Positions 3,201-21,483 of a DNA stretch of 21,483 bases are shown here, in pieces. The notes beneath the pieces were generated by a model. The model saw only the letters and a program-made list of their open reading frames with translations, did not search any database and was not told the origin of the DNA. This DNA comes from an uncultured virus (IMG/VR IMGVR_UViG_3300035689_000001) (lineage: Duplodnaviria; Heunggongvirae; Uroviricota; Caudoviricetes): the IMG/VR virus record IMGVR_UViG_3300035689_000001. One strand, written 5' to 3'. A program made the translations under genes and the position numbers. Within the stretch, counting starts at the first letter, position 1. The number at the start of each line of letters is the position of its first letter.

Positions 3201-6200
3201 CCGGGCGGATAACTCTTTTTCGATCTTTCCGAACGTTGAATCCCTGTGCTTTCTCCCGCTGAGGAAGGATGATAAATCTGGCTGGGAAGCGTCTACGGGG
3301 ATTGAGCTATCGATCGGCGATACCGTAATCTGCAACGATTACGTCCTGGATTTGAAGGAATTCAACGGTCAAGCCGGAATCCTGAAGGCATTCCTACAGG
3401 CAGAGGAAGGGTTTACCCCTTGGTTCGTCCTGGTGGACTTTGACGGGACAGAAGTCGTCTGTTCAGTTGGGATGTTGGAACCTGCGTCATACCAGGGATT
3501 AAGAAGGGGCGATCGCGCCGAGATCATCAAATGCAATTATCCCGACTATATTGGGGAACATGTCCGCGTCAACAGGATCGACTGGTGTTTCGGCACCATT
3601 TGGGTTTCTCGCGGAAACGGATTAAGTAGCTGTTTCCCCCGGGAAGCCCTACAACCAGTCCATCACCTGAAGCGAACCCCGGAAGATCCCCCACTGTGCG
3701 GCGATCGCCCCGATGCTCCCTATTACCTCACGAATCAACTGAGCAAACTGGCGTTCGAGACCTTAGCACACAACATCTGCCCAGAGTGCCAAGCCCTGAA
3801 TGCGACGCCAGACGAGGCCACTGCTTCGGAAGCTCCAGCACCACAGGAGAGCGATCGCCCCGACTACCTCGAACCTTACCAAAGGGAATTCCCCGTAGGG
3901 CAGGTTGTTTGGTTACTGGATAGTCTCAACCCTGCGTTTGTCTGGCGCAACGGGGTTGTCCAGGAGGTCAAGGGCGAAGGGATTAATCGCCGGGTTCTGG
4001 TGAACCTGGGGGAAGCCTTGGGGACCCACAAATGCAACCCAGCAGATCTGGTGCCGGAAGGCGAAATCATTGGGCGGTACACTTATCGATCTCCCAACGG
4101 CGAATCGACCGTCACGGCCCATTCGGCAGGAGAACAACATCTTTTCTTCGAGTTCCAGGGTGGTCTGATTGATCCAGAGCATTATCCCGCTGGTTATGCC
4201 ACGGTTTACGCCTGGGTGGAAGACCAGAAGGAGCCAATCAAAGATTTCATCAAAGCAACGGGTGGCAAGCTGGTGCAGGACTTCATCGACGCGATGGAGG
4301 CCGAGCACAAGCGCGTCCACAAGGCGATCATCGCCGCTATTGAGCTATACGAATCCCCTGCCCCAATGAAGATCGCTCAATCGCTCTACTACTTCGACGA
4401 AACCGGGGAATCAATCGCTCAGGAACTCCTGGGCGACTACCCCGAACACCCACTCATCCGATTCACCGATGAGTTCAAGGTGCTGGTCATCCGGGCGATC
4501 GTACACGCTGCCCTCATCGTAGCAGGGGTTGCCGACATTAAGGAAACCATCTTTTTAGTTGCTCCAGAACCGTCCAGCACTTTGGACGCTCCTGCTGAAC
4601 CGTGCAAGGTTAAACCGGGCGATCGGGTTCGGGTCTTGGCGGTCAAGGATCATCAACCAGAATCATTGATCGGCATGGTTGGGGTAGTCGAAAAAGTTTT
4701 GTCCAACCGATGGGATCGAATTTTGGTTCGATTCAATTTCCCTGACAAAGGAGCAGCGCCCATCAGGATGTTCCCGACAGCAGGATATCTGGAGCTGGTG
4801 CAGGAAGAGATCGCACCGGTGGCAGAAAAGGTAGCTGATCAGCCCACCGTCATGAAGGAAATTCAACAGGGCGATCGCGTCCGGGTCCTGGCGGTGCAGC
4901 AGCATCAATCTCAGGCATGGATCGGCAGAGTCGGAACCGTCGAAAAAATCACGAAAGGGAAGTCAGGCCGGATTCATGTCCGGTTGGATGCGGCCAACGG
5001 GGAACCGGAGCCATTCACGCTGCCGTTCCCGAAGGATGGCTGTCTGGAGCTGGTGCAGGAGGAGACGATCGCCCCGGTGGTGGAAGTAGGGTCTGAACCC
5101 ATGACTGTTGAGGTTGGGGTCGCAACCATCACGATGAACCCTGTGCCCGGAGTTCTGGTGAGCCTGACGGATCAGCAGGGACGTTGGGAGCACAACATCA
5201 GGAGGGTGCTGTTGGCCTGCCAGACATCTCATCATCCGCTCTATTGGCAAAACGAGAAGGTTCGGATCTCGCAAATCTCCCTACCGGGCCAAATCCTCAA
5301 GGTTTTGATCATCAACCATGATCACGATGGGCCGCTCGCCAACCAGGATGCAGTTCTGGCTGGAACCTGGAAGTGGGTAGAACCCAGTGAACTTCAGATT
5401 GATGCCACAACCTTGGGGGCTATTCAGTGGAATGAAGTCAAGCTGTACAGCCAGGTAGAGATTTGCCATGAGGCCCAGCAGGATTTCCCAGATTTATTTG
5501 GCCATACCTGGGAACTGATCCAGTCGGGTATTGGAGATGCTGAAGTCCCGACCGCCGTCATTGTGAAGCCAGGGCAGCAGGAGGGGGATGACTATGAGGT
5601 GCCCCTGTGGGCTATCCGGGGGATCAGTTATGTGCCAGCAGAAAATGTTGAGCCTCCGGTTGAACCGGAGCAGCCAAAACCAAAACTCTCCCCCAAAACC
5701 CTGAAGAAGATTCAGAAATTCCGGGAAGGCGCGGCTCAACTGGAGCGGGAGATCCAGCACAGACGGAATCCCAGCGCGGCCTCCGGGCGAATCACCCGGA
5801 AGCGTTGCGAGGAGGCGATTGACCAACTTCAACAAGCGCAGAAGCTCACTCGCCACTGGCAGGCATTGAACGCGATCGCCAACGCCCTGGAGTCGGGAAC
5901 GTGCCCACCGGAACTGGAGCACCTGAACGCGAAAGTCCACGTCACGGAGCTGGTGGATAATTTCAAGCGCGGGGCAGCGCTGCCAAATGCATTTGGGGAT
6001 GATCGCGATCGGTTCGATAAGGCCAGAGAACTATTGTTGGCTCTCCCGATGCCAGACCCCATCGTCACGGACGATGAAATCAAACTGAAGTCACTGGAGT
6101 GGCAACTATGCCTCAACCCAATCCCTGGCTTCTTCCCAACCACCAAACCGCTGGCCACCCGGATGATCGAACTGGCCGATATCCGACCCGGTCATCGGGT

Positions 6201-8658: not shown

Positions 8659-8668
8659 GGGCAGGCGT

Positions 8669-8980
8669 ATGTGGGCATCGAAGGTTGGGGATCGGGTGTA
8701 CGGCGATTTTAGGCAGACATTGTGGCAAGTCACGCGCTTCTGTCGCGTGTCTGACCTGCGGATGGGCGAGTTTTTCAGCCATGTTAACGATCGCGATCAG
8801 GTTCTGGCGGGTCGCTTTCAGTGGATGGGGAACGGCACTGTCAATACAGTGTTTGGTCCTCGCAAGTGGGACGAACAAGATTGCCAGATCACACGAGTCG
8901 CAGCACTTGAACAGATCGTGGCGGTCGATGAGGTGCCGCTGCCCGACGGCAGCACCGTACTACAAGGACGAATTTTTTAG
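8669..8980 (+). CDS. Hypothetical protein, 103 aa, with an N-terminal KOW-like motif (KVGDRV)
   Basis: ATG at 8669 is 10 nt after the giant ORF stop. The ORF fills the gap before the next gene. Confidence 0.6.
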   Translation: MWASKVGDRVYGDFRQTLWQVTRFCRVSDLRMGEFFSHVNDRDQVLAGRFQWMGNGTVNTVFGPRKWDEQDCQITRVAALEQIVAVDEVPLPDGSTVLQGRIF

Positions 8981-8990
8981 AGAGGTGATC

Positions 8991-9941
8991 ATGACACTTG
9001 GGCTAATTTCAGATTTTCGAGAATACTATGACCATTGCTTTGACCAAAAGGAATGTTCTGATGTTCTGAAGGAGCACTACCAGGCCCACCGGACGGAGCG
9101 CGATCGCAAAGACATGGGACGGCACTATACCCCGAAGCATCTCGCCAGGGCCGTCACGAAGATGGCGCTCAAACCAAACGGCAGTCCTGATGCAGGGTGG
9201 CTGAAGCACCTCGCAGCCGTCCAGCAATTGCCAGTTGATCAACAATTGCAAGCGGTCCTGAATTTCCATACATGCGATCCAGCGGCGGGCAGCGGCAACT
9301 TTCTGGTGCAGGCCGCCAAGGAAATCGGGATTGGGGTAGCCCGGATTCTATTTCAGTCCAAAGTGCTGGACGCTCGCCAGGTTGAAGCCGGGATGTCGCT
9401 CGCGACCCAGAACTGCATCTACGGGGTAGACCGGGACCCGCTGGCAGTTGAGTTGTGCAAACTGGCCCTCTGGCTCAACGCAACCGAGCACCACATCCTG
9501 ACGGAGCTGCCGCTCCCTACCCTCCCGAATATCCGGTGTGGTGATTCACTCGTGGGAGTCCTGGAACTTTCGGTCTTGAAGGAGGGGATTCCTGACGGAT
9601 TTTACAAACCCAATGGCCTTGACGATAAAGCCGTTGCGGCTGCGTACCGGAAGCAAAACAAACAGGAGCGATCGCGCCACACCAACACGGCCACCAGCGG
9701 GTCTCTCCAGATACTTCGGGATGCCTGCGATGTCTATACGGCTGCTTGCTTCGTAAAAAAATTACCCGATGCTCCAGTCCCGACGACCGCGACCCTGGGG
9801 GCTGTCCTGAACCAATGCCTGACGCCACAACAGGAGGCGATCGTTCAGCACTGCCGCGAGACATCCCAACGGTTGCGGTTCTTCCACTGGAAGCTCGAAT
9901 TTCCAGAGGTTTTTCTGAAAAATGCCAAAAAAGCAATTTAA
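8991..9941 (+). CDS. Type IIG/Eco57I/PglX-like DNA methyltransferase, N-terminal half only (SAM-binding motifs present, catalytic NPP(Y/W) absent); possible pseudogene
   Basis: GAGGTG RBS precedes ATG 8991. Motifs: RKDMGRHYTP (X), CDPAAGSGNFL (I), IYGVDRDPLAVELCKLALWL, NIRCGDSLVG. The ORF ends at FFHWKLEFPEVF, just before where GFD..GNPP(Y/W) normally follows. Confidence 0.8.
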   Translation: MTLGLISDFREYYDHCFDQKECSDVLKEHYQAHRTERDRKDMGRHYTPKHLARAVTKMALKPNGSPDAGWLKHLAAVQQLPVDQQLQAVLNFHTCDPAAGSGNFLVQAAKEIGIGVARILFQSKVLDARQVEAGMSLATQNCIYGVDRDPLAVELCKLALWLNATEHHILTELPLPTLPNIRCGDSLVGVLELSVLKEGIPDGFYKPNGLDDKAVAAAYRKQNKQERSRHTNTATSGSLQILRDACDVYTAACFVKKLPDAPVPTTATLGAVLNQCLTPQQEAIVQHCRETSQRLRFFHWKLEFPEVFLKNAKKAI

Positions 9942-10632
9942 CGGAACCTGTGCATATTGCTATAAAGAATTTACCGCCCATCGTCGCCGCCAATGTTGCG
10001 ATCGATCCTGCGCCCGATCCTTAGGGTTGCAGCAAACGGGGCAAATGCCGTGGCACTGGGAAGAAAAAGAACTGTTGGACACATTGTCCGGCACTCTCCC
10101 GTTCCACGAGATTGTCGATAAGATACAGAAATTGGATAAGCGCCTCGGTATTCCTGAGCGATCCGCGATCGCCATCGGCGTCAAGATGAAGCGCATGGGG
10201 TTGAGTAAGCGCCCCACCCTCAGCCATATGACGACCGGGGACATTGCCAGAACATTGTCGGTGCCTCGTGATCGCGTCGAGCTATGGACCGAAAAATATG
10301 GCCTCAAGGCGGAACGACTCATCAAGGACTGGCGATTGATCTCCCTTGAGGATTTTACCGAATGGGCACATCAGCACCCCGAACTACTGGGAGGTCTCAG
10401 TCAGGATGCCCTAGAGTGGCTGACGGGCGATCGTGACTTTGCAGTAGAACGTGCCGCCGAATCACCCGATTGGAGAGGTCGCCCCATGCCAGTGCGTCGC
10501 CTCGACGACAACAGAACATTCCCCAGCATTAAGGCGGCGGCGCGAGCCTGTTATCTGCATCCCGCTTCTATCCGGCGGGCACTGAAGAAGAATGGTGCCA
10601 CCTGCGATGGAGCCAAGTGGGAGTATTACTAG
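9922..10632 (+). CDS. Multi-domain DNA-binding protein: N-terminal Cys Zn finger, central HTH-like region, C-terminal NUMOD1/IENR1-like domain
   Basis: CAYC..CCDRSC; MTTGDIARTLSVPRDRVELW (HTH-like); PVRRLDDNRTFPSIKAAARACYLHPASIRRAL..GAKWEY (NUMOD1-like). Confidence 0.75.
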   Translation: MPKKQFNGTCAYCYKEFTAHRRRQCCDRSCARSLGLQQTGQMPWHWEEKELLDTLSGTLPFHEIVDKIQKLDKRLGIPERSAIAIGVKMKRMGLSKRPTLSHMTTGDIARTLSVPRDRVELWTEKYGLKAERLIKDWRLISLEDFTEWAHQHPELLGGLSQDALEWLTGDRDFAVERAAESPDWRGRPMPVRRLDDNRTFPSIKAAARACYLHPASIRRALKKNGATCDGAKWEYY

Positions 10633-10814
10633 GGGCGATCGCCCTTCCGTATCCATTCCCAAAACGCCGCTGGCCTCCAGCCGGACTCCTGGAACTTGAC
10701 GAAGCGATCGCCCTCCCGCACCCAGATAAAAACCTGGCCAGTCTTGGGATTGACCCCTCGCAACGGCACATTACCCCAGTCGGTCCCGCCGACCCGGCCA
10801 AATGATTTAGGCAT
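10629..10814 (-). CDS. Small hypothetical protein, 61 aa (MPKSFGRVGG...)
   Basis: Its start overlaps the stop of the upstream 309-aa ORF. Its 5' two-thirds are duplicated at 13662-13762. Confidence 0.55.
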   Translation of the reverse strand: MPKSFGRVGGTDWGNVPLRGVNPKTGQVFIWVREGDRFVKFQESGWRPAAFWEWIRKGDRP

Positions 10815-10857
10815 CGTTATTTTCCGTTGCTCCAGAACCGTTCAGCACTTTGGACCA
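10714..10857. repeat. Direct repeat copy 1 (~144 bp; 99-bp identical core 10726-10824)
   Basis: Matches 13662-13805 at a constant offset of 2948 bp. Confidence 0.95.
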
Positions 10858-11736
10858 TTCGGCCTGGGCCACCTGCATGAACCCAAGGTATTGCTCTGAG
10901 AGCCGCACCTTGTTGGATTGCGCCATAGGTCGCCCCTCGTCCCCCGCGAGCATATTCCATAGGGTATCGGCCCAGCGCCAGACGGGATGACTTCCGGGCG
11001 GCGGCATCTGGCTTGGGTCGTTCAGGTCGCTTGCGCTCCAGAGGCGGGGATTTAGACGTGGGTCGGTCGATGGGAACGGCAACAGCCCTGCCGCAACGTT
11101 GCGGTACAGCAGTTGTAGTCCCGCGATGTAAGTCACCTGATTAGAGAAAAGTGTCTGGGACTGCGCGATCGCTATCACGACTTCCTGATGCTGAAGGATT
11201 TGCTGTTCCGTGCAACCTACCATCAAACAGCGCAACCACTCCTGTTGAGTCTTGCATAGCCTGTCGAGGGATGCCTGAGAGTGCAGATGCTGGTTAACCA
11301 GCATCAATGCAACAGCATTGACGAATTTTTCACTCAGGTCAGGTGCAGCGTTCGGATTGGGCGTCTGATCCCGCACCTCTTGCCTGATTTCCAACAATCC
11401 ACCCAACTCTCTGATGTTAGGGATGTGGCGACTGGTGGTGAGATCGTGATGGACAAACCCCGCAGGTGGCCGATATGCAGTCGTAATCGGTGGGAGCGCT
11501 TCCAGGGTTTCCCGCAGGGTGGCGATCGCAGCGATCGCATTGTCCAGTAGGGTCAGGGACATCTGGTTGATGTTGCTTTGCAGATCGTTCGATGCTGCGA
11601 TCGCGTCGGCCAGAACAGTCGGTTCATGGTCTCGGCATCCCTCAGGGTCTGGCCCGCCAGGGTGAATAGCGCAGTGAAGATGATCGGACGGACAGTAGTT
11701 TTGGCACGCCCGACAGAACTCCGGGAAGCTTGGCAT
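10807..11736 (-). CDS. Hypothetical protein, 309 aa, with an N-terminal Cys/His cluster (DUF6464-like CAIHP.GP motif)
   Basis: CRACQNYC..HLHCAIHPGGPDPEGCRDHE resembles a cyanobacterial Cys-rich motif. TAATG coupling with the upstream ORF. Confidence 0.7.
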   Translation of the reverse strand: MPSFPEFCRACQNYCPSDHLHCAIHPGGPDPEGCRDHEPTVLADAIAASNDLQSNINQMSLTLLDNAIAAIATLRETLEALPPITTAYRPPAGFVHHDLTTSRHIPNIRELGGLLEIRQEVRDQTPNPNAAPDLSEKFVNAVALMLVNQHLHSQASLDRLCKTQQEWLRCLMVGCTEQQILQHQEVVIAIAQSQTLFSNQVTYIAGLQLLYRNVAAGLLPFPSTDPRLNPRLWSASDLNDPSQMPPPGSHPVWRWADTLWNMLAGDEGRPMAQSNKVRLSEQYLGFMQVAQAEWSKVLNGSGATENNDA

Positions 11737-13647: not shown

Positions 13648-13762
13648 GATGATGTTTTGAATCCCGAACCCATATAAAAACCTGGCCAGTCTTGGGATTG
13701 ACCCCTCGCAACGGCACATTACCCCAGTCGGTCCCGCCGACCCGGCCAAATGATTTAGGCAT
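13637..13762 (-). pseudogene. Truncated second copy (41 aa) of the 61-aa ORF at 10629-10814
   Basis: The first 33 aa are identical (MPKSFGRVGGTDWGNVPLRGVNPKTGQVFIWVR), then the sequence diverges and stops. Confidence 0.55.
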
Positions 13763-13805
13763 CGTTATTTTCTGCTCCCCCAGAACCGTCCAGCACTTTA
13801 GACCA
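13662..13805. repeat. Direct repeat copy 2 (~144 bp; 99-bp identical core 13674-13772)
   Basis: Matches 10714-10857. Confidence 0.95.
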
Positions 13806-13843
13806 ATAGCGGAATTCCCCATCCCTCCGGGTGGTAGGGTCGT

Positions 13844-14686
13844 TTATCCTGAATAATTCCGCAGCTCAGGGAACTCTGCCACGAACTCTGCCCACAGGTC
13901 AGGGTGGTAGAGCCGCAGACGTGATAATCGCCCCCGGTTTACCCCGGTGGTGCCGATCGGTGGCCCGTTCCGCACGGTCATGCGATCGCGGTCATACATT
14001 GCGGGGTAGGGGAGCTGGTGGGCGTCGATATACTGCCAGATTTCTTTGGTACTCCAGAACCCAACTGGGGAACAGATTACCCGTCCATCCTGACGCCGAT
14101 ACAGTGTTTTCTTGCTGGCCAAAAACTTTTCACGCCCTTTTGATTCACGCCGCAGCCCCCAGGCGTAGCCCGCGATCTGGTTTTGTTCCTCATATTGGGC
14201 GATCGGACGGTACATCAGGGCCTGATTGATTTTTGCATCCAGGGCGGTTCCCATGTGGCTTGCTAGCGGCACACCATAATCCCGGTACAGATCCCAAAGG
14301 CTGCGGGGTGGACAGATCTCAATGATGTTCCACCCCGCAGCTTTCAGGTAGTCAATCAATAGCAAGCAATCTGGCCATTCTGCCATCGGCCCCTGGTTAA
14401 TCCAGACAATTGGGCAATCGGGGATTACCTGCCGGATCAAGCACCCCGCTACCAGTGAGTCTTTGCCAGCTGAAAAATAATGACAGACTCTCCCCCCGGA
14501 TTCCTGCTGCCATTGTTGGATCGTGGCGATCGCCCGTTGCTCCCACTTTTGCAGCCACGGGGCAGGCAGGCCACTACCGTAGTGGAGTCGTGCCTCCAGT
14601 TGGGTGATGCCACTGGGGAGCCAGTAGTCAATCGTGCGGGTGAGCGCTCGCCGTGTTGTCGCGCGAGTCTCCACCCGCCTAATCAT
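13844..14686 (-). CDS. PAPS-reductase-family (CysH-like) PP-loop protein, 280 aa; resembles the CysH-like accessory protein of type IV-B CRISPR loci
   Basis: PP-loop FSAGKDS, WGLRRES..R, SPVGFWSTKEIWQYI, LPYPAMYD. It lacks the C-terminal ECG(L/I)H motif of true assimilatory CysH. Confidence 0.85.
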   Translation of the reverse strand: MIRRVETRATTRRALTRTIDYWLPSGITQLEARLHYGSGLPAPWLQKWEQRAIATIQQWQQESGGRVCHYFSAGKDSLVAGCLIRQVIPDCPIVWINQGPMAEWPDCLLLIDYLKAAGWNIIEICPPRSLWDLYRDYGVPLASHMGTALDAKINQALMYRPIAQYEEQNQIAGYAWGLRRESKGREKFLASKKTLYRRQDGRVICSPVGFWSTKEIWQYIDAHQLPYPAMYDRDRMTVRNGPPIGTTGVNRGRLSRLRLYHPDLWAEFVAEFPELRNYSG

Positions 14687-14927
14687 CAGCCCCCCAGGCT
14701 GGCAGACCCGCCCTCGCCCTCATGTCCCGCTGTTTTTTCTTGAGCTTCTTGTAGCGCTCCTGGAGGGCATTACGCTCGTTGATCCGTTGTTGCAGAACAT
14801 CTACGGTTTCATCGTAGTCTCCTTGCCGCAGGCGAGCGTACTCAACCTGTCGCTGCGCCTCTTTATATGCAGCGGCTACTTCCACGATTTCCTGGTCAAT
14901 TTCCGCCAGTGTCTTTTTCTTCGCCAT
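14679..14927 (-). CDS. Small coiled-coil protein, 82 aa
   Basis: Charged heptad-like helix; overlaps both neighbouring genes. Confidence 0.6.
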   Translation of the reverse strand: MAKKKTLAEIDQEIVEVAAAYKEAQRQVEYARLRQGDYDETVDVLQQRINERNALQERYKKLKKKQRDMRARAGLPAWGADD

Positions 14928-15108
14928 GTTTCACCAACCTGATCAATTCTTGCTGTTTATCTTTCGGCAGGGCCGCGATCGCCCCCAGCCAACCACTAAC
15001 GCTTCCGTTCCCAGCTTCGGTGCCAGACACCGTAATAAACCCTGACTCGGCGGCAATGGATCGCAGGGTTGCGAATTCCTCATCCGATAGGGCAATGCTG
15101 CGCCTCAT
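14896..15108 (-). CDS. Small putative ribbon-helix-helix-type DNA-binding protein, 70 aa
   Basis: MRRSIALSDEEFATLRSIA...SVSGWL shows a beta-strand/helix/helix pattern. ATGA overlap with the upstream stop at 15105-15108. Confidence 0.55.
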   Translation of the reverse strand: MRRSIALSDEEFATLRSIAAESGFITVSGTEAGNGSVSGWLGAIAALPKDKQQELIRLVKHGEEKDTGGN

Positions 15109-15302
15109 GCTGCCTCTAGGGCAGCGTACCGGGGATTGACTCGATACTGGTACTCCCCATCCCACATCCCTATGATTTTTCCATCGTCACCCGCAAAATG
15201 CAGATCGCACAGCCACATCAATCCCGCCTGCTCTGCGGCTAGCTCGCAATGATCCTGGAAGTTCATTGCATTGATTCCGTTTTGTACCTGGACAATCTTC
15301 AT
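15105..15302 (-). CDS. Small acidic hypothetical protein, 65 aa
   Basis: GAGGA RBS and a predicted promoter directly upstream; coupled to the next gene. Confidence 0.65.
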   Translation of the reverse strand: MKIVQVQNGINAMNFQDHCELAAEQAGLMWLCDLHFAGDDGKIIGMWDGEYQYRVNPRYAALEAA

Positions 15303-15310
15303 AAGACTTC

Positions 15311-15356
15311 CTCAGTGCGTACTCGTATTATGACCTGAGTACGCACTGAGCGTCAA
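15311..15356 (-). promoter_or_regulatory. Sigma70-type promoter (TTGACG-N18-CATAAT) overlaid by a perfect 14-bp inverted repeat (operator)
   Basis: Arms CTCAGTGCGTACTC (15311-15324) and GAGTACGCACTGAG (15337-15350). The -35 is at 15356-15351 and the -10 at 15332-15327, between the arms. Confidence 0.75.
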
Positions 15357-15949
15357 GAATTTTGCTGAACAAAATCGACCAGTACCGCCAGACGCTTTTT
15401 GTTCAGCTCTGTCCCGACAAACTTGCGTCCATTCAGGAAGGCGTGTTTCCCTACTAGCCCCTGCCCCATGCAGAGATCGCCAATGCACTGGTATTCATGG
15501 TTGGCGCAGATCCACTCAATAATCTCGGCTTCGTCCAGGTCTTCCAGTTCCCTGTAGCGCCGCCGCTGATGCTCGTTTGTCGCGTGGATGACGTAGCATT
15601 TGTTCTCGCGCTTGCGGTAGTACGTGGAGTTGTAGAACGTGACGTATCGGTAACGAGCCTCTGCCCGTTTGATGCATTCAGCAAGGGCTTGTTTCCCCGT
15701 CTCTAAAAACAGAGTCGCCGGGGAAATCTGGTCAATACACTCAAACAAGCGATCCAGAAAAGAACCGAACTTGCCGTCATTGCGATCGCTCACCACGCTT
15801 TCGGGGCGATTCTTGAAATTTGTCAGGAGGCTCTGGTCGTAGGGGATATCGATGAACAGGCAGTCGGCCTGCTGCATAAAGTCTGGCAAATCATCGTAGA
15901 TATCGTGAACCGCAACGGTTGAATCATTTGGCAGGCTGTAGATCGTCAT
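15353..15949 (-). CDS. Permuted (beta-class-like) N4/N6 DNA methyltransferase-like protein, 198 aa
   Basis: N-terminal motif IV-like LFIDIPY; C-terminal motif I IGDLCMGQGLVG..GRKFVGTELN. Confidence 0.75.
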   Translation of the reverse strand: MTIYSLPNDSTVAVHDIYDDLPDFMQQADCLFIDIPYDQSLLTNFKNRPESVVSDRNDGKFGSFLDRLFECIDQISPATLFLETGKQALAECIKRAEARYRYVTFYNSTYYRKRENKCYVIHATNEHQRRRYRELEDLDEAEIIEWICANHEYQCIGDLCMGQGLVGKHAFLNGRKFVGTELNKKRLAVLVDFVQQNS

Positions 15950-16529
15950 AGGTGATTCCCTGCTGAATTAAGTCATCGATAAAGAATGGTGTTTGCCTTC
16001 CTGAAGCATGGCCCGCAAGACTCGTGAAATTGAGGTGCTGCACCAGGCATGGACGAACCCGCCAGTATTTCACCTTCTCCTGCACCAAAACATAGCTGAT
16101 GAATGCATCACAGCTAACGCCTCTAAATCGCTCTGGCTTTTCGCGTTTGAAGGTCTCAAAATGGCCCCGCATCCTGGAAGGCAAACCAGGCGGCAAATAG
16201 ATGCACTGCATCCACAAGAAGTTGCTGCCTCCAACGTATTGGGTTGGCAACCACACTTTTGGCTTTTCAAAGAAGTTGAAAACTTTGTCGTGCCCCTTCT
16301 CCGAAACGATTGATTCCAGGCGATCGCAAAAGGTTTCGCACAGGAGTACGTCATCCTCAAGCAAAACGGCACCCGTGTCATCAATCTGGTCGCAAACATC
16401 AAAGAAGGTCTTGTACCAATCCCCGACAGAATCAACCGTCACCTGGAGATCGGGGATGTGGCGTTTCATCCTCTCGACGTTTTCTAATCGTTCCGCTGAC
16501 CAGCTCACAGTCCTGACAAAATACCTCAC
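15924..16529 (-). CDS. GT-A fold glycosyltransferase (GT25-like), ~201 aa
   Basis: AVLLEDDVLL acidic motif, plus DAFI and RPCLVQH. The GTG start overlaps the upstream TAG (TAGTG) and has an AGGAGG RBS. Confidence 0.7.
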   Translation of the reverse strand: MRYFVRTVSWSAERLENVERMKRHIPDLQVTVDSVGDWYKTFFDVCDQIDDTGAVLLEDDVLLCETFCDRLESIVSEKGHDKVFNFFEKPKVWLPTQYVGGSNFLWMQCIYLPPGLPSRMRGHFETFKREKPERFRGVSCDAFISYVLVQEKVKYWRVRPCLVQHLNFTSLAGHASGRQTPFFIDDLIQQGITYDDLQPAK

Positions 16530-17125
16530 TAGCTGGCCTCCTTCATTTCCCACGACATTGAATAATCTGCATTCTTGAATAGTTCCGCGATACCCGTTAA
16601 CTGTTTATAGCGGTGAATCGTATCGAGGTCGATCCCCAGGTGGATACTAACCTCCTCCTCACTCATGCCCTGTTGCAGAAGCGCCCGGATCACGTCAGCA
16701 TCCCGATCAACCTCATGGGTACCCTTCGCCTTATTGAACTGAATGGTGGCGACCATCCGCTGGTTTATGTCATGGGGCAGCACCACCAAGGGGAGATAAT
16801 CAAACTCCAGCCAATCCTCTCCGGCGATCGTACTGCGGTGGAACCCGTCCACAATGATGAAAACGCCATCATCCTGATCCCAGACCGCTACCACCGGGAA
16901 GCAAAACCCGTTATCCAGGATGGACTGTTGCAGCAGCTCCATCTTTTCCTTCGGGACATAGTTCGGGTTGTAGTTGTTGGCACGAACCAGCGCAGTTGAA
17001 ACCAGCAGGGTATTGCAGCACGGCACCAGCACTCTGCCGTGCTTTTTAGACGTGATATAGACCGGGGCGATCGCCCCTACGGCCTGTTGAAAATCCTCAG
17101 CGGTATCAATCCAGATAACAGCCAT
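16529..17125 (-). CDS. IbrB-like ParB/Srx-domain protein with C-terminal HTH, 198 aa
   Basis: VRANNYNPN..MELLQQSILDNGFCFPVV..IVDGFHR..RMVATIQFNKAKGTH..LGID..RYKQLTGIAELF..YSMSWE. Confidence 0.88.
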   Translation of the reverse strand: MAVIWIDTAEDFQQAVGAIAPVYITSKKHGRVLVPCCNTLLVSTALVRANNYNPNYVPKEKMELLQQSILDNGFCFPVVAVWDQDDGVFIIVDGFHRSTIAGEDWLEFDYLPLVVLPHDINQRMVATIQFNKAKGTHEVDRDADVIRALLQQGMSEEEVSIHLGIDLDTIHRYKQLTGIAELFKNADYSMSWEMKEAS

Positions 17126-18351
17126 CAGACGATCTCCTGTTGGGATTGGGGTAATGGTTCTGAAGTGGCAGGGCGTGGAGCCGTCACTGGGGTTAAGACT
17201 GACGTAATCATCAGGAGCCAGATCAGTACCTGCCGATAATACTCAATCAATTGCTCACGGGGGTCAGGGGCGTTGTGGACGTGGACATTGTTTTCGTAAT
17301 CGTTCAAGATTAATTGCCTGCACTGCTGCCGCGCCACATATTCATTATTCAGGTGTCGGGCAAACCGCTTCAAGAATATCTGTTTACGGCCTGGGTCAGG
17401 GTAGGTTTCAAGCAAAAAGTCCCGGTACTGAATCCAGGAGCTGAAATTTTGGGGTAGCGTCCGGGCCTTGAACATTTTGCTGTTTTTGCCCGTCTCCTGC
17501 GCGAACGCAATCCCCTTGATGCGCTTACATAGCTTCTCATAGGTTCTGGGTTCAAACTCTGGCAGTTCACAGATGCTTTTGAACGATCGCTCATGGATCA
17601 GGCTGGAGCAGCGGATTTCACTAATCCCCATCCCCTTCATGAACTGCCAATCATAGATTTTTGAATACCGGATTTTTTCGTCGTAGATGTAGCGCCACAC
17701 ATCATGGAAGTTCCAGTCAAAGATTGGGGAAATGCTGGCATTGCCGTTACCCCGGTTGGTTGCGTAGTAAACATCCTGTCCATTGATCGGGACAGGATGT
17801 TTCACCATTGCCCGCCAGCGGTTTGGCCCTTCGGTTGCCCGCAACCCCAGCAAGAATGCCGTATTGGTGTAGCACCGCTCAAAGTTTTCGATCACGTCAT
17901 AGTAATCAAACCCGATCGCCTTATTGCGGATCGTTGGATTATCCCCCCAAGGCGGCGAGATAATGTTGTTTTTCCCCTTGGGTCGCATCCATTCTTTGTG
18001 CTTGCCCTTCTCCCATGCGACCAGATAGGGTTCAGTCAAGGATGTAGCGTTCGTCAGATTAAATTCAACCTGGAGCCACAACCGATTGGTGTTCTCCGGG
18101 TACAGGTTCATCAGGTATTCCACCTGGTCGATTGTGGATTGATAGACCACCTCTTCATCAAAGAAGAATAGCCCTACCTTCCGGTTGCGCCGCCGCGCTT
18201 CCAGCAGGGCCAGGTGTGCCAGAACTGTCGAATCTTTCCCGCCCGATATGCTAACGATGATGTTGTCATAGGAGTCGAAGAGAAAGCTGATGCGCTCCCG
18301 TGCCGCTTCCAACACATTTTTCGTTTTGCTCACCGAATGAACCAGCATCAT
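17125..18351 (-). CDS. IbrA-like PAPS-reductase/DUF3440-type PP-loop protein, ~408 aa
   Basis: NVLEAARERISFLF..SISGGKDS..FFDEE..LGLRATEGPNR..SPIFDW..DVWRY. AGGAGG RBS before ATG 18351; directly upstream of the IbrB-like gene. Confidence 0.88.
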   Translation of the reverse strand: MMLVHSVSKTKNVLEAARERISFLFDSYDNIIVSISGGKDSTVLAHLALLEARRRNRKVGLFFFDEEVVYQSTIDQVEYLMNLYPENTNRLWLQVEFNLTNATSLTEPYLVAWEKGKHKEWMRPKGKNNIISPPWGDNPTIRNKAIGFDYYDVIENFERCYTNTAFLLGLRATEGPNRWRAMVKHPVPINGQDVYYATNRGNGNASISPIFDWNFHDVWRYIYDEKIRYSKIYDWQFMKGMGISEIRCSSLIHERSFKSICELPEFEPRTYEKLCKRIKGIAFAQETGKNSKMFKARTLPQNFSSWIQYRDFLLETYPDPGRKQIFLKRFARHLNNEYVARQQCRQLILNDYENNVHVHNAPDPREQLIEYYRQVLIWLLMITSVLTPVTAPRPATSEPLPQSQQEIV

Positions 18352-19276
18352 GAACCTCCTGCAGGAGAGTGGGTCGATATGGAGTGTGGGGAATCTGGGC
18401 GATCGCATTGTTTAGCCGATCAGCCCAATCGCGGTAGCGCTGGAGATACCACTGGTCTACCTTGAGGTCGGTCGTGATGACCGGGACGATAGTTTGGCGG
18501 GTAGTTGCCAGAAAGTCGTTGAATTCAAGGTGGTTGTGGCAAAACTCGAATACGGTGTAGCGATCGCCCATCAGATCATCCCGGTAAGTCGTCAGGTTTG
18601 GGAGTTTGAAGCGGTTGTTTCGCCCAACGTATTGGGTGTCTGGTTCCACGGCCACCAGTTTTGTCTTGCCCGTCGTCAGGTATAGGTTTCGGGGAATCGT
18701 GTGTGGGTCTTTCAGCCCAATATTATCAATCAACTCAGCCTTTTTCTTCTGGTATGCAGACTTCTGCTGAGCCGTTGTTTCAAGCTTAATTTCCTGGAAC
18801 AGCGGCACCACGGGATTGATTATGACCGTGGCGTTAGCTACCAGTTCCCGCGCAAAAGGTTCACGCTTCCACTGGCTGCGGGTATCGAAGTCAAACAGCG
18901 TCATAAAGTCTTCGATCCCGTCGATAAACGGCAGGTATTGGAAGATCAGTTTATGGTGTGTCTGCATCAGGAATTGCCGGATGCAGTTATACGTCAGGTC
19001 GTTGCGGTTTTGTGTCCGGAGGCATTCATGAACGACCAGCAGGGTGCTGTGGTCGATTTCCTGCACAAGCCGATAGTAAACCCTATACTGGACGATTTCG
19101 TTCCTGGGGCCAATCCCGGTCTCTCCCCACAGCACCACTTCATGAGGAATCTCTTCCCCCAGGTCAAGCCGAAACTTGGGAGGACACAGCACCACGACCC
19201 GCTTGATTCCGTGGTCACGGCAATACTGCCGCACCACCTCTAATTTTGCTGCCGTGCCCAACCCCAGATAGATCAT
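18266..19276 (-). CDS. Hypothetical protein, 336 aa; probable degenerate SF2 helicase-like fold
   Basis: Helicase-like strand order (RVVVLCP, LLVVHECLR in place of DExH), but no Walker A motif. ATGA coupling to the GNAT gene. Confidence 0.6.
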   Translation of the reverse strand: MIYLGLGTAAKLEVVRQYCRDHGIKRVVVLCPPKFRLDLGEEIPHEVVLWGETGIGPRNEIVQYRVYYRLVQEIDHSTLLVVHECLRTQNRNDLTYNCIRQFLMQTHHKLIFQYLPFIDGIEDFMTLFDFDTRSQWKREPFARELVANATVIINPVVPLFQEIKLETTAQQKSAYQKKKAELIDNIGLKDPHTIPRNLYLTTGKTKLVAVEPDTQYVGRNNRFKLPNLTTYRDDLMGDRYTVFEFCHNHLEFNDFLATTRQTIVPVITTDLKVDQWYLQRYRDWADRLNNAIAQIPHTPYRPTLLQEVHDAGSFGEQNEKCVGSGTGAHQLSLRLL

Positions 19277-19662
19277 GGCTCCAATCCCAATTTCGTCCGG
19301 TAGACGGTTCCCTGCGACATCTCGTAAGAGCTGATGACCTGGAACCCGTGCGGCGCGTAAAAAGCAGGGCGATACACCAGCGCCTTGATTGCTTTGGATT
19401 GTTTGCTCCGGGCAAGGGCGATCGCCTCTTTCAGGAGGACAGTCCCGTGGCCCCGGTGGCGATGCTCTGCCACCACGTAGAGGGATCTCAGATGCGCAGT
19501 CGCAGGTTGGCCAAAACTCACCCCAGCGCAGCCGATTATTTTGTCCTCGACAAAGCCACCCAACCAGATGGTGTACGGGGTATCCTGCATCGTGACGAGA
19601 TCGCGCACCGCTTCCCGCAACATCTGTTTAATGTCCTGGTAATCAACCTGCCGAACTTCCAT
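19273..19662 (-). CDS. GNAT family N-acetyltransferase, 129 aa
   Basis: LRSLYVVAEHRHRGHGTVLL (motif A) and AFYAPHGF (motif B). TAATG coupling with the upstream gene. Confidence 0.88.
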   Translation of the reverse strand: MEVRQVDYQDIKQMLREAVRDLVTMQDTPYTIWLGGFVEDKIIGCAGVSFGQPATAHLRSLYVVAEHRHRGHGTVLLKEAIALARSKQSKAIKALVYRPAFYAPHGFQVISSYEMSQGTVYRTKLGLEP

Positions 19663-20165
19663 TACTTTCCGAATCCCCTTGGCTTCGGACGTTGTGGGCG
19701 ATCGCCCTGAATCAACGCCAGCGCCAAACATTGCTCAAAATCTGCCAGCCAACTCAGCCCGATCGCTTCCTCAACGGGTAACACCAGGGTGGCGAGCCAG
19801 GGGAGCCGAGCGGGCTTTGCAGGTGGGCGCGATACCGACAGGGTGCCAAACTTTGCCGCCAACCGCAGGTACAGCGACTCAAACCCTTCCCAACACTCCT
19901 GTTCGCTCGCCTGTGTCCAGGCCACCGCATTGGTGTTGAGGATCATCTCACCCTGGTAGATATCAAACAGCGCTGCACCCTCGACTGTCGTGACTTTGAC
20001 GCTGTACCGACTAAACGGTTCAGGTAGCTCCGTCTGGGTCTGGCCTTCCGCCAGTGCCCGGAGTGCAATTGGCCGCAGCAGCTTGATAGCGCCCGGGTCA
20101 AATTGCTTGCCCCCACAGTCGAATGTATCGGCGGTATTGAGGGTGTAGTGCAGGAGATTGGTCAT
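19662..20165 (-). CDS. Hypothetical protein, 167 aa, ending in a KPRGFGK tail
   Basis: GAGGAGG RBS; ATGA overlap with the upstream stop. Confidence 0.75.
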   Translation of the reverse strand: MTNLLHYTLNTADTFDCGGKQFDPGAIKLLRPIALRALAEGQTQTELPEPFSRYSVKVTTVEGAALFDIYQGEMILNTNAVAWTQASEQECWEGFESLYLRLAAKFGTLSVSRPPAKPARLPWLATLVLPVEEAIGLSWLADFEQCLALALIQGDRPQRPKPRGFGK

Positions 20166-20368
20166 TCGACCTCCTCTGCCAGGAGATCCTCTTCTGCCGC
20201 GAGCGATCGCTCTATCAGGAGCCGCGCCTTCTCGTTGTTGGAGTTGGCGTAGTGGGTTCCATCCGGGTGAATCCCGACCGTGAAGCTCGCGCCCTCACTG
20301 TTGCGAACCTCAACCGATTGTCCGGGCTTCAGGTTCGCTGTCGCGGCCCCAAACAACATGATCAGCAT
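20162..20368 (-). CDS. Small hypothetical protein, 68 aa
   Basis: GGAG RBS; coupled to the downstream gene. Confidence 0.6.
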   Translation of the reverse strand: MLIMLFGAATANLKPGQSVEVRNSEGASFTVGIHPDGTHYANSNNEKARLLIERSLAAEEDLLAEEVE

Positions 20369-20394
20369 CTAACTCACTCCAACAGTTCAAGTTC

Positions 20395-20790
20395 TTAAAG
20401 TCGTTGCTCCAAGTCGTTTCCTGGGGCTTCTTCCGGCAGGTAGTAGGCGATCGCATCCAGCAAAATCTCCACGGTGGATATGCCCGTGAAAGAATCCTGA
20501 CCGACCACCAGGATCGTTTCCTTGCTATCAATAATGATGCTGGGGGCGTGACCGCTGAGCTGTTCCAGGATGCGCCACAGCAGATTGAGTCTGTTGTTAA
20601 CCAAGTGACCTGTCAACCAGTCGCTGCCTCGATCTCTACTACCCTGAGATCCCCAGGCTGACAGAAAATCATTGGGAATTCTCAACCGTCCCTGGACGGA
20701 TGCCTCCCCAGGCTTAATGGCACGGGCCAAACGGGCAATCCTGGCGGCATCTTCGGAAACCTTAGGATCGCGAGACTTTCTTTTAATCAC
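20395..20790 (-). CDS. Hypothetical protein, 131 aa, with a basic N-terminus
   Basis: GTG start overlaps the upstream stop; fits the operon tiling. Confidence 0.6.
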   Translation of the reverse strand: MIKRKSRDPKVSEDAARIARLARAIKPGEASVQGRLRIPNDFLSAWGSQGSRDRGSDWLTGHLVNNRLNLLWRILEQLSGHAPSIIIDSKETILVVGQDSFTGISTVEILLDAIAYYLPEEAPGNDLEQRL

Positions 20791-21037
20791 AAAACCAACG
20801 CTGCTCCACCTTGACCTGCCACCCTGAGTCGCCCAACACGACCCTGGGGCAGGGCCGCAGATACTCCTGACCCGAAACCGTTAAGGGCGCGCACCCCTTT
20901 ACATCCCACTGCTTTGCCGTCTGCCGGGTATCCAGAATTTCATCCAGGGCGACTCCATTGACTCGCTGACGGGTAGCGCGATCGCCCAGATCCGCTACCC
21001 GTATAAAGCCATTAAATTCCTGCCGCGTCATTATCAT
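20783..21037 (-). CDS. Small hypothetical protein, ~84 aa
   Basis: GAGGA RBS; first gene after the predicted promoter. The exact start (21046, 21037 or 21031) is uncertain. Confidence 0.6.
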   Translation of the reverse strand: MIMTRQEFNGFIRVADLGDRATRQRVNGVALDEILDTRQTAKQWDVKGCAPLTVSGQEYLRPCPRVVLGDSGWQVKVEQRWFCD

Positions 21038-21068
21038 GATCAACAATCCTCAAATCAGGTATATCAAT

Positions 21069-21098
21069 ATTATTGACAGTAATCACCGTTCTGTCAAT
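21069..21098 (-). promoter_or_regulatory. Sigma70-type promoter (TTGACA-N17-AATAAT) overlapped by an 8-bp inverted repeat
   Basis: The -35 TTGACA is at 21097-21092 and the -10 AATAAT at 21074-21069. Arms ATTGACAG (21072-21079) and CTGTCAAT (21091-21098). Confidence 0.7.
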
Positions 21099-21358
21099 TT
21101 AGACCCTGAATCTTTACAAAGACTCCGCACCCCATCCGACGTTTCCCGCCAAGCCCGTGGATCTGGAGTTTCAGGGATTCTTCAGGGCGCAGATCATTGA
21201 ATCGCACGGAGTAGCCAACGACATCATTGCCGTTCACCCGCATACACCCCCGATCGCCAATCTCCGGTAGGGTATCGATACCAAGGCGTTCTAGTTGTTT
21301 CCCCAGGCACATCGCAAACTTGATGGGTTCGACGCGGGTGCCCTGCCGCAGCTTGATA
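21094..21358 (-). pseudogene. cas6: 3' part of cas6 (Cmx6/type I-MYXAN-like), interrupted by an IS200/IS605 insertion
   Basis: IKLRQGTRVEPIKFAMCLGKQLERLGI..VVGYSVRFNDLRPEESLKLQIHGLGGKRRMGCGVF contains the Cas6 G-rich loop. Homology stops at the IS end, and an in-frame TAG lies just upstream inside the IS hairpin. Confidence 0.85.
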
Positions 21359-21483
21359 TTGACATCCTCCCCACCCTATAGAGGGATGGGGATTCCCAAA
21401 CCTCACGATTTAGGTTTCTGCTTCATCCACGTTTGCGTACACAGACAAGCCATGTTCCCGTCTTACATCATGTCCACAGACTT
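21359..21483 (-). mobile_element. Right end of an IS200/IS605-family (TnpB-type) element, including the 3' part of the omega-RNA scaffold
   Basis: Minus strand reads GAAGCAGAAACCTAAATCGTGAGGTTTGGGAATCCCCATCCCTCTATAGGGTGGGGAGGATGTCAA. This gives two hairpins and the GGAGGATGTCAA terminus characteristic of these right ends. Confidence 0.85.
21410..21483 (-). CDS. tnpB: Probable extreme C-terminal tail of TnpB (partial)
   Basis: VCGHDVRREHGLSVYANVDEAET* resembles the xCG..VR tails of TnpB and sits just before the right-end hairpin. Only ~23 codons are visible. Confidence 0.45.
   Translation of the reverse strand, partial: VCGHDVRREHGLSVYANVDEAET

Follow-up and report, generated by a model that had tools for sequence, protein, structure and literature searches.

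Plasmid pRHL2, the textbook example of subtype IV-B, represents a group of CRISPR-Cas loci composed of csf1, cas11, csf2, and csf3 together with a cysH-like gene. The product of the latter, CasCysH, has a PAPS-reductase fold with a PP-loop of the form SGGxDS/T (available part of PMC8175902). In the available parts of PMC7038947 and PMC8175902, the function of type IV-B CRISPR-Cas and of its nearly invariant CysH-like partner is presented as an open question, and cas6 is described in the former as rare in the subtype, with 12 instances. A second set of relevant genes is formed by the IbrA/IbrB pairs of Escherichia coli and many phages; no description of their chemistry, and no link between them and type IV-B systems, was found in the literature searched.

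The window analyzed here is a stretch of 21,483 nucleotides from an uncultured virus (IMG/VR record IMGVR_UViG_3300035689_000001). Its DNA contains 43 HIP1 sites, with 0.49 expected, and is therefore cyanobacterial; the DNA surrounding the genes described below is best explained as mobile-element-like. We propose, with a probability of roughly 0.6, that the block from 13,816 to 21,392 (Table 1) derives from a phage-type subtype IV-B locus with a built-in IbrA/IbrB cassette, of which only the enzyme half is intact while the Cas half has been reduced to the last ~40% of cas6. The intact half includes genes for a GNAT protein, an SNF2-like protein, IbrA, IbrB, a candidate GT-A glycosyltransferase, a methylase-like protein, and a CysH-like enzyme.

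Table 1. Features of the block and its boundaries, with the basis of each assignment
Feature	Position	Strand	Basis
Second, inverted hairpin-repeat copy, CCACCC-N-AGGGATGGGGA	13816..13834	-	Pattern match, directly after cysH stop
CysH-like PP-loop enzyme, 280 aa	13844..14686	-	Pfam PAPS_reduct; phage type IV-B-associated clade
Three small overlapping ORFs (65, 89, 82 aa) between methylase-like gene and cysH	14679..15302	-	No family
198-aa beta-class adenine-DNA-methyltransferase-like protein	15353..15949	-	Family profile, alignment A6
209-aa predicted GT-A glycosyltransferase	15924..16553	-	AF2 + Foldseek
IbrB-like ParB/Srx-domain protein	16529..17125	-	phrog_2159 1.8e-43; TIGR00180 weak
IbrA-like PP-loop enzyme, DUF3440 tail	17125..18408	-	Pfam, phrog_2302
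336-aa SNF2 N-lobe-like protein (p336)	18266..19276	-	Structure-search lead, alignment A3
GNAT acetyltransferase	19273..19731	-	Pfam Acetyltransf_1 7.6e-12
Four small ORFs (87, 131, 68, 167 aa), no family	19662..21046	-	Profile and tblastn negatives
Sigma-70-like promoter match TTGACA-17-AATAAT, 11/12	21069..21097	-	Consensus match only, at cas6-remnant stop
3' remnant of Cmx6-type cas6	21097..21375	-	Pfam PF09559, local Cas6 profile, upstream stops
Multi-copy short dispersed repeats, including hairpin copy at 21371-21392 (+)	21357..21426	.	Contig depth + pattern match

The initial annotation had described a non-assimilatory CysH-like gene of 280 codons, and the comparisons bear this out. The open reading frame is intact and matched Pfam PAPS_reduct (PF01507) with an E value of 1.6e-12, but it scored only 39 bits against the NCBIfam model for true CysH, whose cutoff is 165. 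Its PP-loop reads SAGKDS at residue 72, the S, G, D, and S being invariant in 29 sequences. The last cysteine is residue 205 of 280, so that the final 75 residues are cysteine-free, and the protein lacks the catalytic cysteine that true CysH has at its C terminus, the loss that distinguishes CasCysH. In the CysH tree, it fell in a clade of 34 rows (SH-aLRT 83), with 30 of the 33 other rows csf-adjacent, and housekeeping CysH fell elsewhere, which is the placement expected from the original suggestion of a type IV-B affinity. Among relatives of the gene with 44 to 60% identity, csf genes adjoin cysH in 39 of the 42 viral loci and in all 3 genome loci; in the other 3 viral cases the contig starts at cysH. 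The nearest rows in the tree belong to loci L003 to L007, in which cas6 lies between csf3 and cysH in the order cas11-csf2-csf3-cas6-x-cysH-csf1. The tree did not resolve how the phage clade connects, at its deep nodes, to the CysH of actinobacterial type IV-B plasmids. These sequence relationships support the assignment of the window protein to the type IV-B-associated kind of CysH. In the window itself no csf gene adjoins cysH, and 6.4 kb separate the gene from the closest Cas-like sequence, the cas6 stub.

The IbrA/IbrB pair is present and intact, and cysH, ibrA, ibrB, and the cas6 remnant all lie on the minus strand, as had been reported. The IbrA-like protein matched both PAPS_reduct (PF01507; 1.7e-14) and DUF3440 (PF11922; 1.6e-7) past their cutoffs, as well as phrog_2302 (2.4e-81), and its PP-loop is SGGKDS (sequence and alignment A5); its true start is probably near 18351. 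The IbrB-like protein carries the motif DGFHR, and the start of its gene shares base 17125 with the ibrA stop. The window thereby contains two distinct PP-loop enzymes, one IbrA-like and one CysH-like, in agreement with the earlier reading. The gene for p336 lies before ibrA in all 13 close IbrA loci, and the GNAT gene upstream of it occupies the same position in L028, L064, and L073. No Pfam match and no PDB sequence match were found for p336, and its AF2 model was poor (pLDDT of 45.5), but a structure search with the Atlas model gave a TM score of 0.66 to an SNF2 N-domain. SNF2 helicases carry a Walker A motif (GxGKT), a DExH box, and the sequence DEAHRIKN; alignment A3 contained no clear copy of the first two in p336, only G..K remnants, and NECLRTQN at the DEAHRIKN position. 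As a lead only, p336 may be SNF2-like but with no clear ATPase motifs.

Three further proteins of the cassette resemble transferases. Besides the GNAT protein, the 209-aa protein gave an AF2 model of moderate quality (pLDDT of 67.7 and pTM of 0.68) with 60 Foldseek matches in the PDB at E values of ≤1e-3, nearly all of which, among the matches listed, were GT-A glycosyltransferases; together with an acidic EDD (DxD-type) motif invariant in six sequences (alignment A4), this predicts a GT-A glycosyltransferase. The family profile of the methylase-like protein matched DpnA (3e-9), CcrM (8e-7), M.MboIIA, and M.RsrI, and the window protein itself had a weak PADLOC oMTase match. Beta-class amino DNA methyltransferases carry motif IV, (D/N/S)PP(Y/F/W), ahead of motif I, FxGxG. 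The window protein has DIPY at motif IV, in contrast to the DPPW, DPPY, or DPPC of its relatives, and its N terminus is shorter (alignment A6); DIPY in place of DPPW may leave the protein impaired. The role of the cassette is most likely nucleic-acid modification, probably of DNA.

At the other end of the block, the initial annotation had placed a cas6 gene. A Cmx6-type sequence is indeed present there on the minus strand, but it is a 5'-truncated remnant and not a gene. Its homology spans 21112 to 21363 and covers only positions 113 to 188 of 191 in the Pfam model PF09559 and, in a local profile built from phage sequences related to it, positions 128 to 211 of 213 (8e-31), and its score against TIGR02807 (62 bits) is below the cutoff of 98.85. 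The frame encodes 72 aa from the first ATG at 21312 (21094-21312), or 93 codons from stop to stop (21097-21375); a TAG at 21376-21378 closes it upstream, where three in-frame stops were counted. The glycine-rich C-terminal loop GLGGKRRMGCG is intact and aligned with the profile, whereas the N-terminal domain of a full-length Cas6 is missing with the first ~60% of the protein, and neither PF09559 nor the local Cas6 profile had a significant match in the other frames of 21094-21483. When contigs of four runs were placed on the stretch, 21357-21426 proved to be a short repeat present in multiple copies, with flanks that differed among many pieces. A 62-nt piece of it (21359-21420) had a depth 2.2 to 2.5 times that of the 7645-nt contig in X1 to X3 and 1.4 times in X4. 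The contig of single-copy sequence stops at 21387; the cas6 homology breaks off within a few bases of the repeat, at which the assembly also ends. The partial model match, the upstream stops, and the multi-copy repeat at the cut therefore identify cas6 as truncated. The hairpin repeat had 2 matches in the window, with 0 expected, and dispersed repeats bracket the block from 13,816 to 21,392.

No csf1, cas11, csf2, or csf3 was found in six frames of the window with local profiles built from 22 to 32 distinct phage sequences per family (23 for csf2 and 32 for csf3), the best E values being 0.68, 0.39, 1.9, and 0.22, respectively; PADLOC likewise had no csf2 or csf3 match in any window ORF. No CRISPR-like array was found in the window, as previously stated, and the minus-strand ORFs had no match to a helicase or cas1/cas2 and included no DinG or RecD. 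A cysH-like gene without an array, adaptation genes, DinG, or RecD is the accessory complement of subtype IV-B. The proposal of a type IV-B-like locus is thus supported in part, through relatives (the CysH clade and the interleaving of IbrAB described below), and not by the window's own Cas genes, since all four csf/cas11 genes are missing and cas6 is a stub. Because no csf gene is present, descent from a type IV-B locus is argued from relatives and from this stub.

It is conceivable, though unlikely, that the type IV-B-like locus is functional and continues just past the right edge with csf1, cas11, csf2, and csf3, cas6 being the last of its genes visible in the window. The stub does lie farthest upstream in the block and on the correct strand, and relatives have csf genes directly upstream of cas6 (L003 to L007) or of the IbrAB cassette (L074). 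However, this cas6 lacks its first ~60% and has stops upstream, its homology ends at a repeat with unlike flanks, and no csf1 lies downstream of the window cysH, where most relatives have it. Moreover, five unrelated small ORFs and a separate promoter-like site intervene between the stub and the cassette. The 87-, 131-, 68-, and 167-aa ORFs had no Pfam, NCBIfam, PHROG, or PADLOC match; profiles seeded on the 87-, 131-, and 167-aa ORFs found nothing in L001-L055 or L069-L148, and tblastn with all four found nothing in L001-L055. The total number of sigma-70-like matches in the region was not above that in shuffled sequences. As the only visible Cas gene is a broken cas6 stub, the window is therefore read as a decayed or rearranged copy of a type IV-B/IbrAB arrangement.

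Intact versions of this arrangement were found among relatives. Locus L074 has the order csf1-cas11-csf2-csf3-SNF2-like(p336)-ibrA-ibrB-MTase-cysH, with csf3 through cysH on one strand and the enzyme genes ordered as in the window. With IbrA alone as the seed, searches yielded csf2-csf3-cysH-p336-ibrA-ibrB in 3 of 8 metagenome loci; of 80 viral loci, 7 had csf genes, and these were interleaved in differing orders. Most IbrAB cassettes occur without type IV-B genes, which were absent from 73 of the 80 viral loci and, among the 13 closest, from 10. Such neighborhoods could be a shared hot spot for accessory genes, which cluster in phages and plasmids, and chance might have brought an orphan PAPS-reductase-like phage gene together with an IbrAB cassette and a cas6 fragment in an accessory island, with no functional CRISPR-Cas tie. 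The frequency of csf-less cassettes and the repeats on either side of the block fit that account, which is nevertheless improbable: the enzyme genes lie inside csf operons in several orders and several IbrA lineages (L073, L074, L085, L087, L144, L036, and L046 to L048), and the window CysH belongs to a clade that is overwhelmingly csf-adjacent. In the IbrA tree, 12 of 86 labeled rows (87 with the window's own) are csf-linked, which requires at least six changes of state. PADLOC models confirmed Cas11, Csf2, Csf3, Cas6, and Csf1 in L003 and L030 and csf genes in L074, L085, L087, L144, L046, and L028. These sequence data show repeated interleaving of IbrA/IbrB cassettes with type IV-B genes in several lineages. 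That the 72-aa ORF is a working mini-Cas6, retaining the C-terminal RNA-binding domain alone as an accessory, is highly improbable despite its intact loop and open frame, as the nine viral loci with Cas6 include no short homolog (all are full-length or cut by a contig end) and its upstream boundary is the repeat junction.

On the proposed reading of the block as a derivative of a type IV-B locus with an IbrA/IbrB cassette, its enzymes might act as follows. IbrB would bind DNA; IbrA and the CysH-like enzyme would each activate a nucleic acid, or a precursor, at one position by ATP-dependent adenylation; and after replacement of the activated group, the sugar, acetyl, and methyl transferases would add their decorations. 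The resulting mark may shield the element's own DNA from restriction or another defense, and in intact relatives the Csf ribonucleoprotein could be coupled to this chemistry, perhaps placing or limiting the modification. The available parts of PMC8175902 and PMC7038947 contain no measured chemistry, substrate, or modification for IbrA/IbrB or type IV-B CysH. The recurrent interleaving of type IV-B genes with a cassette that includes these transferases points to nucleic-acid modification chemistry, and it supplies defined gene sets for expression and assay. More speculatively, and with the odds clearly against it, the window may represent a naturally arising derivative without csf genes that kept cysH intact along with the IbrAB cassette; type IV-B CysH would then be functionally part of an IbrA/IbrB nucleic-acid modification pathway, and the Csf ribonucleoprotein would not be the core of the system but an optional accessory to this pathway, used for targeting or gating. 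The window is a case of enzyme genes persisting without visible effector genes, and it exemplifies the arrangement less well than do the intact loci L074, L073, L028, and L046 to L048.

Among known systems, the subtype IV-B loci of Rhodococcus jostii RHA1 pRHL2 and the Mycobacterium sp. JS623 plasmids resemble the window in having a CysH-like PP-loop enzyme without the C-terminal catalytic cysteine, in lacking an array, adaptation genes, helicase, and nuclease, and in lying in mobile-element DNA; the pRHL2 PAPS-reductase gene, which is beside a RAMP gene, encodes a protein 28% identical to that of the window. In contrast to those loci, the window lacks csf1, cas11, csf2, and csf3, has an IbrAB cassette between the cas6 stub and cysH, and has a cyanobacterial rather than an actinobacterial host. 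Dnd/Ssp phosphorothioation systems (DndC and DndB) and BrxP of BREX type 4 similarly combine a PAPS-reductase-family PP-loop enzyme with a ParB-like protein in a DNA modification setting, but PADLOC matches to DndC and BrxP in the window were weak, with scores far below family level, and the cysteine desulfurase, DndD/E, and Ssp partners are absent. CasCysH has been argued not to make phosphorothioates (available part of PMC8175902). The E. coli and phage IbrA/IbrB pairs (PHROGs 2302 and 2159) share with the window the PAPS_reduct and DUF3440 domains, a ParB-like partner, the PP-loop SGGKDS, a DGxHR-type ParB motif, and overlapping genes, whereas the window pair is joined by the SNF2-like, GNAT, GT-A, and methylase-like genes and by a further, Cas-linked PP-loop enzyme. 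Phage type IV-B loci in which IbrAB is embedded (L074, L073, and L028/L071 in IMG/VR and L046 to L048 in metagenomes) share the order (gnat)-p336-ibrA-ibrB-(GT-A)-MTase beside cysH, and their IbrA proteins are 60 to 70% identical to that of the window. They differ in retaining the four csf/cas11 genes that the window lacks, and in the loci most alike in gene order (L074, L073, and L046) CysH is of a different lineage, with only 25 to 31% identity to the window protein.

What the window contains of a phage-type IV-B locus is its enzyme half, with an IbrAB cassette (the PP-loop protein IbrA and the ParB/Srx protein IbrB with their neighbors) and a truncated cas6; no effector genes (csf1, cas11, csf2, csf3) are visible. 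Nearly all of the plausible genes from 21375 down to 10807 lie on the minus strand. Both PP-loop enzymes noted in the initial annotation are present, the IbrA-like protein and a 280-aa CysH-like protein, and its statement that the window lacks an array holds: a scan for tRNAs, Rfam families, and CRISPR-like arrays found none in the window, nor did a search of it for the CRISPR repeats of related viral loci allowing up to 9 mismatches.

Features of the window and of related loci (L numbers, fetched loci of relatives), with gene orders where these are informative
Sequence	Feature or gene order	Position	Strand
Window	Cas6-like fragment	21097-21375	-
Window	Four small ORFs (87, 131, 68, 167 aa) without family	19662-21046	-
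Window	GNAT (gnat)	19273-19731	-
Window	336-aa protein (p336)	18266-19276	-
Window	IbrA-like, PAPS_reduct + DUF3440	17125-18408	-
Window	IbrB-like, ParB/Srx	16529-17125	-
Window	209-aa protein (p209)	15924-16553	-
Window	198-aa adenine-methylase-like protein (MT198)	15353-15949	-
Window	Three small ORFs	14679-15302	-
Window	PAPS-reductase-like protein, 280 aa (CysH-like)	13844-14686	-
Window	Giant ORF (≥2885 aa, incomplete at the left edge), 418-aa N6-methylase, 236-aa protein	1-10632	+
Window	144-base direct repeat, copy next to cysH	13662-13805	
Window	144-base direct repeat, distal copy	10714-10857	
Window	Hairpin repeat, right copy	21371-21392	+
Window	Hairpin repeat, left copy	13816-13834	-
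L014	CRISPR array/repeats	14534-17328	
L018	CRISPR array/repeats	19743-20470	
L022	CRISPR array/repeats	18095-19516	
L015	CRISPR repeats (two)	11502-11590	
L013, L017	CRISPR array/repeats		
L026	Repeated sets csf3-cysH, csf3-csf1, csf3-cysH-csf1	1393-8662	
L028 (found via CysH)	csf1-csf2-csf3-cysH, facing MT198-ibrB-ibrA-p336-gnat		
L036 (found via CysH)	csf3-cysH-ibrA-ibrB		
L032 (found via CysH)	cysH adjoins gnat-ibrB-ibrA		
L031, L034, L037-L039 (found via CysH)	p209 immediately 3' of cysH		
L030, L035, L055 (found via CysH)	MT198 adjoins cysH		

The HIP1 sequence (GCGATCGC), the abundance of which is a hallmark of cyanobacteria, occurs at 43 sites in the window against 0.49 expected. The right-hand 2 kb is present in four lake-water metagenome runs, which are candidate sources, and none of the sequencing runs listed as containing window DNA is an RNA run. 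An exact 46-base word of the right end matched no viral, metagenome, or genome contig, and no plasmid or phage was matched by megablast with 13800-21483. The giant plus-strand ORF at the left edge has a DUF4326 match and a weak DUF6093 match and is followed by a 418-aa N6-methylase (MmeI/DrmMI-like) and then a 236-aa protein, relatives of which adjoin an IbrAB cassette in L141 and, in L034 and L019-L021, a type IV-B locus.

In the CysH-like protein the PP-loop reads SAGKDS and the last cysteine is residue 205 of 280; its scores are far under the cut-offs for true CysH. A large protein collection contained 94 relatives (best, 87% identity), mostly unnamed metagenome proteins; the closest, at 62-87% identity, are encoded on contigs of up to 87 kb. 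A single-sequence scan of viral contigs with this protein found no relative, whereas scanning IMG/VR with an alignment recovered 42 viral loci; these were mapped using profiles built here and checked with PADLOC models. The csf genes abut cysH in 39 of these 42 loci (near-duplicates occur among them, the distinct CysH sequences making 35 csf-adjacent tree rows), usually in the order cas11-csf2-csf3-cysH-csf1; in L032, L035, and L040, which make up the remainder, the contig ends where cysH starts, so that the region upstream of it is not visible. The csf-cysH arrangement was also found in all three genome loci, two of them in cyanobacterial MAGs, and a Cmx6-type cas6 is present in nine of the viral loci (L003-L007, L029, L030, L035, L041).

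The initial annotation had suspected a tie between the CysH-like protein and type IV-B, and a quick 63-row maximum-likelihood tree does place it with csf-adjacent CysH, within a 34-row clade (SH-aLRT 83) that includes 30 csf-adjacent rows and three contig-edge rows. The nearest rows are L003-L007, where the order is csf3-cas6-x-cysH-csf1. A clade of its own, with full support, is made up of five actinobacterial plasmid CysH proteins, one of them encoded next to a RAMP gene on pRHL2. The deep nodes are not resolved and long branches meet, so the tree is compatible both with one origin of all Cas-linked CysH and with several. In one csf-linked CysH subclade (with L028 and L036) the PP-loop reads SFGADS, with the lysine lost; the window and most other sequences have S(G/A)GKDS. 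The repeated sets of L026 include two different CysH-like genes, one of them very divergent.

Type IV-B systems are usually described as array-less. CRISPR repeats were found in the fetched flanks of six loci; in viral contigs the arrays, built of 37-base repeats (28 + 11 units at most), are separated from the type IV-B operons by 3-9 kb. The two repeat copies of L015 are directly 3' of csf1.

Several loci found via CysH also carry IbrAB cassette genes. In one MAG (genome G003), a single methylase-like gene is found at the end of the L055 contig and at the start of the L064 contig; if joined, the two contigs would read csf1-csf2-csf3-cysH facing MTase-ibrB-ibrA-p336-gnat, as in L028. Searches seeded with IbrA recovered csf2-csf3-cysH-p336-ibrA-ibrB in three of eight metagenome loci (L046-L048). 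The best 80 of 228 viral matches were also mapped, and among these the close IbrA relatives (at least 57% identity) had p336-ibrA-ibrB with MT198 in 13 of 13 cases, two of which had p209 as well. Seven of the best 80 carry csf genes (L071, which is the same contig as L028, and L073, L074, L082, L085, L087, and L144), and these calls were confirmed in a second test. L074 encodes csf1-cas11-csf2-csf3-p336-ibrA-ibrB-MT198-cysH on one strand, which is the order of the window with the effector genes still there, whereas in L073 and L085 the cassette sits between csf2 and csf3. In a FastTree phylogeny of IbrA (87 rows, of which 86 are labelled), csf-linked rows number 12 and the starred branches force at least six state changes, some of the "unlinked" rows being short contigs. 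The IbrAB cassette is repeatedly built into type IV-B loci. It mostly travels alone, however, with no csf gene in 73 of the best 80 viral loci, which counts against a link with type IV-B.

The initial annotation had placed the effector genes beyond the right edge. Profiles of cas11, csf1, csf2, and csf3 from phage relatives, run with filters off against six frames of the window, returned only noise (best E values, 0.22 to 1.9). Downstream of cysH, the position that csf1 has in most relatives is occupied by a 2.9-kb segment flanked by a 144-base direct repeat, the two copies of which are 94% identical. This segment has a GC content of 0.49-0.51 versus 0.55-0.57 and five minus-strand ORFs, one encoding a DUF2811 protein, and it looks like an inserted cassette. 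Blastn of the repeat against the fetched loci gave no meaningful match, and the RNA fold of the region downstream of cysH was no better than that of shuffled sequences (z, 0.21).

The Cmx6-like cas6 of the initial annotation stands as a region of Cas6 C-terminal homology but not as a whole gene. Its frame is open for 93 codons from stop to stop (72 from the first ATG), with three in-frame stops upstream. Read through with stops as X, it matched Pfam Cas6 (PF09559) solely at model positions 113-188 of 191, and a profile of seven phage Cas6 relatives only at positions 128-211 of 213 (8e-31; window 21112-21363); the remaining two frames of 21094-21483 had no significant match to either model. When contigs of the four metagenome runs were aligned to 13800-21483, one contig of 7645 bases, evenly covered (depth ~21 in all but one run, where it was 83), stopped at 21387, and 21357-21426 was covered by many short pieces of higher depth, the flanks of which were unlike one another on both sides. 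Relative to the main contig, the depth of one 62-base piece (21359-21420) was 2.2-2.5-fold in three runs and 1.4-fold in the remaining one, and summed depth in the last bin reached 7-14-fold. Variants abolishing the upstream stops were absent from the contigs of all four runs. Because Cas6 homology and the assembly both break off at a multi-copy short repeat, the homology within a few bases of it, cas6 is read as a 5'-truncated pseudogene. A weak N-terminus-like Cas6 match in another frame (~21422-21478) was attributed to chance (E value of 0.63 among 3 sequences; piece depth, 2.4-3 times the main contig).

One unit of the multi-copy repeat at the cas6 break, the hairpin CCACCC-N-AGGGATGGGGA, occurs as two inverted copies in the window (0 expected), the left one directly past the cysH stop, so that the block from cysH to cas6 is enclosed by them on both sides. 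In the metagenome runs the right-hand one is present in multiple copies. A REP/MITE-like element, a terminator, and a recombination site are possible identities for the repeat. An inversion between the two copies, considered as an explanation for the odd gene order, was dropped, since no 5' half of cas6 lies at either side within the window. Blastn searches of the fetched loci with the right end and with the spacer after cas6 were likewise without a meaningful match. Survival of the effector genes beyond the right-end repeat is rather unlikely, at about one chance in four. The observation of the initial annotation is confirmed in part. Its type IV-B reading is partly supported, in the CysH placement and in the interleaving of IbrAB with csf genes in relatives, and not in its effector genes, none of which is visible in the window.

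Among the other cassette proteins, the ibrA ORF overlaps that of p336 by 143 bases, and the true ibrA start is probably near 18351, because relatives align from about residue 19-30. p336 has no Pfam match and no PDB sequence match, and PDB sequence searches with p336, p209, and MT198 singly gave nothing useful. The AF2 model of p336 was too poor for a fold search; an Atlas model aligns to SNF2 N-terminal domains (TM, 0.66), and the alignment retains only remnants of the ATPase motifs of SNF2 proteins, so that a SNF2-like fold may be treated as a lead and not as a finding. The predicted model of p209 is of moderate confidence (pLDDT, 67.7); Foldseek gave 60 matches at an E value of ≤1e-3, and nearly all of those among the matches listed are GT-A glycosyltransferases. 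An EDD motif is invariant in the p209 alignment. The MT198 family profile matches DpnA, CcrM, M.MboIIA, and M.RsrI. Motif IV of the window copy is DIPY, where DPPW, DPPY, or DPPC stands in 14 of 14 aligned relatives, and the N-terminal 25-50 residues of the relatives are missing; for both reasons, the window MT198 may be impaired.

The two PP-loop enzymes would cleave ATP to AMP and pyrophosphate, adenylating a substrate. Alongside them are a ParB/Srx-type DNA-binding protein, a SNF2-like remnant that would handle DNA, and predicted transferases for sugar, acetyl, and methyl groups, a gene set that fits multi-step modification of nucleic acid, most likely of the element's own DNA. The interleaving of csf and IbrAB genes agrees with a modification role without demonstrating one.

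No paper joining "type IV-B" with ParB and CRISPR was found, and the literature on IbrA/IbrB, DUF3440, and PAPS-reductase/ParB, in its accessible text, gave no tie between IbrAB and type IV-B. The comparison covered PMC7038947, PMC8175902, PMC10848311, PMC12669027, PMC11437467, PMC12839542, PMC4490671, and 10.1101/270033. In the last of these, a figure legend on CRISPR-linked gene neighborhoods lists an N6-methylase among its abbreviations. Type IV-B is already known on plasmids, in prophages, and in some phages and archaeal viruses. One of these papers describes Cas6 in IV-B as rare, with 12 instances, and calls the cysH link key to type IV-B (PMC7038947). In another, the type IV-B-associated CysH (CasCysH) is said to be unable to make phosphorothioates and is proposed to modify nucleic acid bound by the Csf complex via ATP alpha-hydrolase chemistry (PMC8175902).
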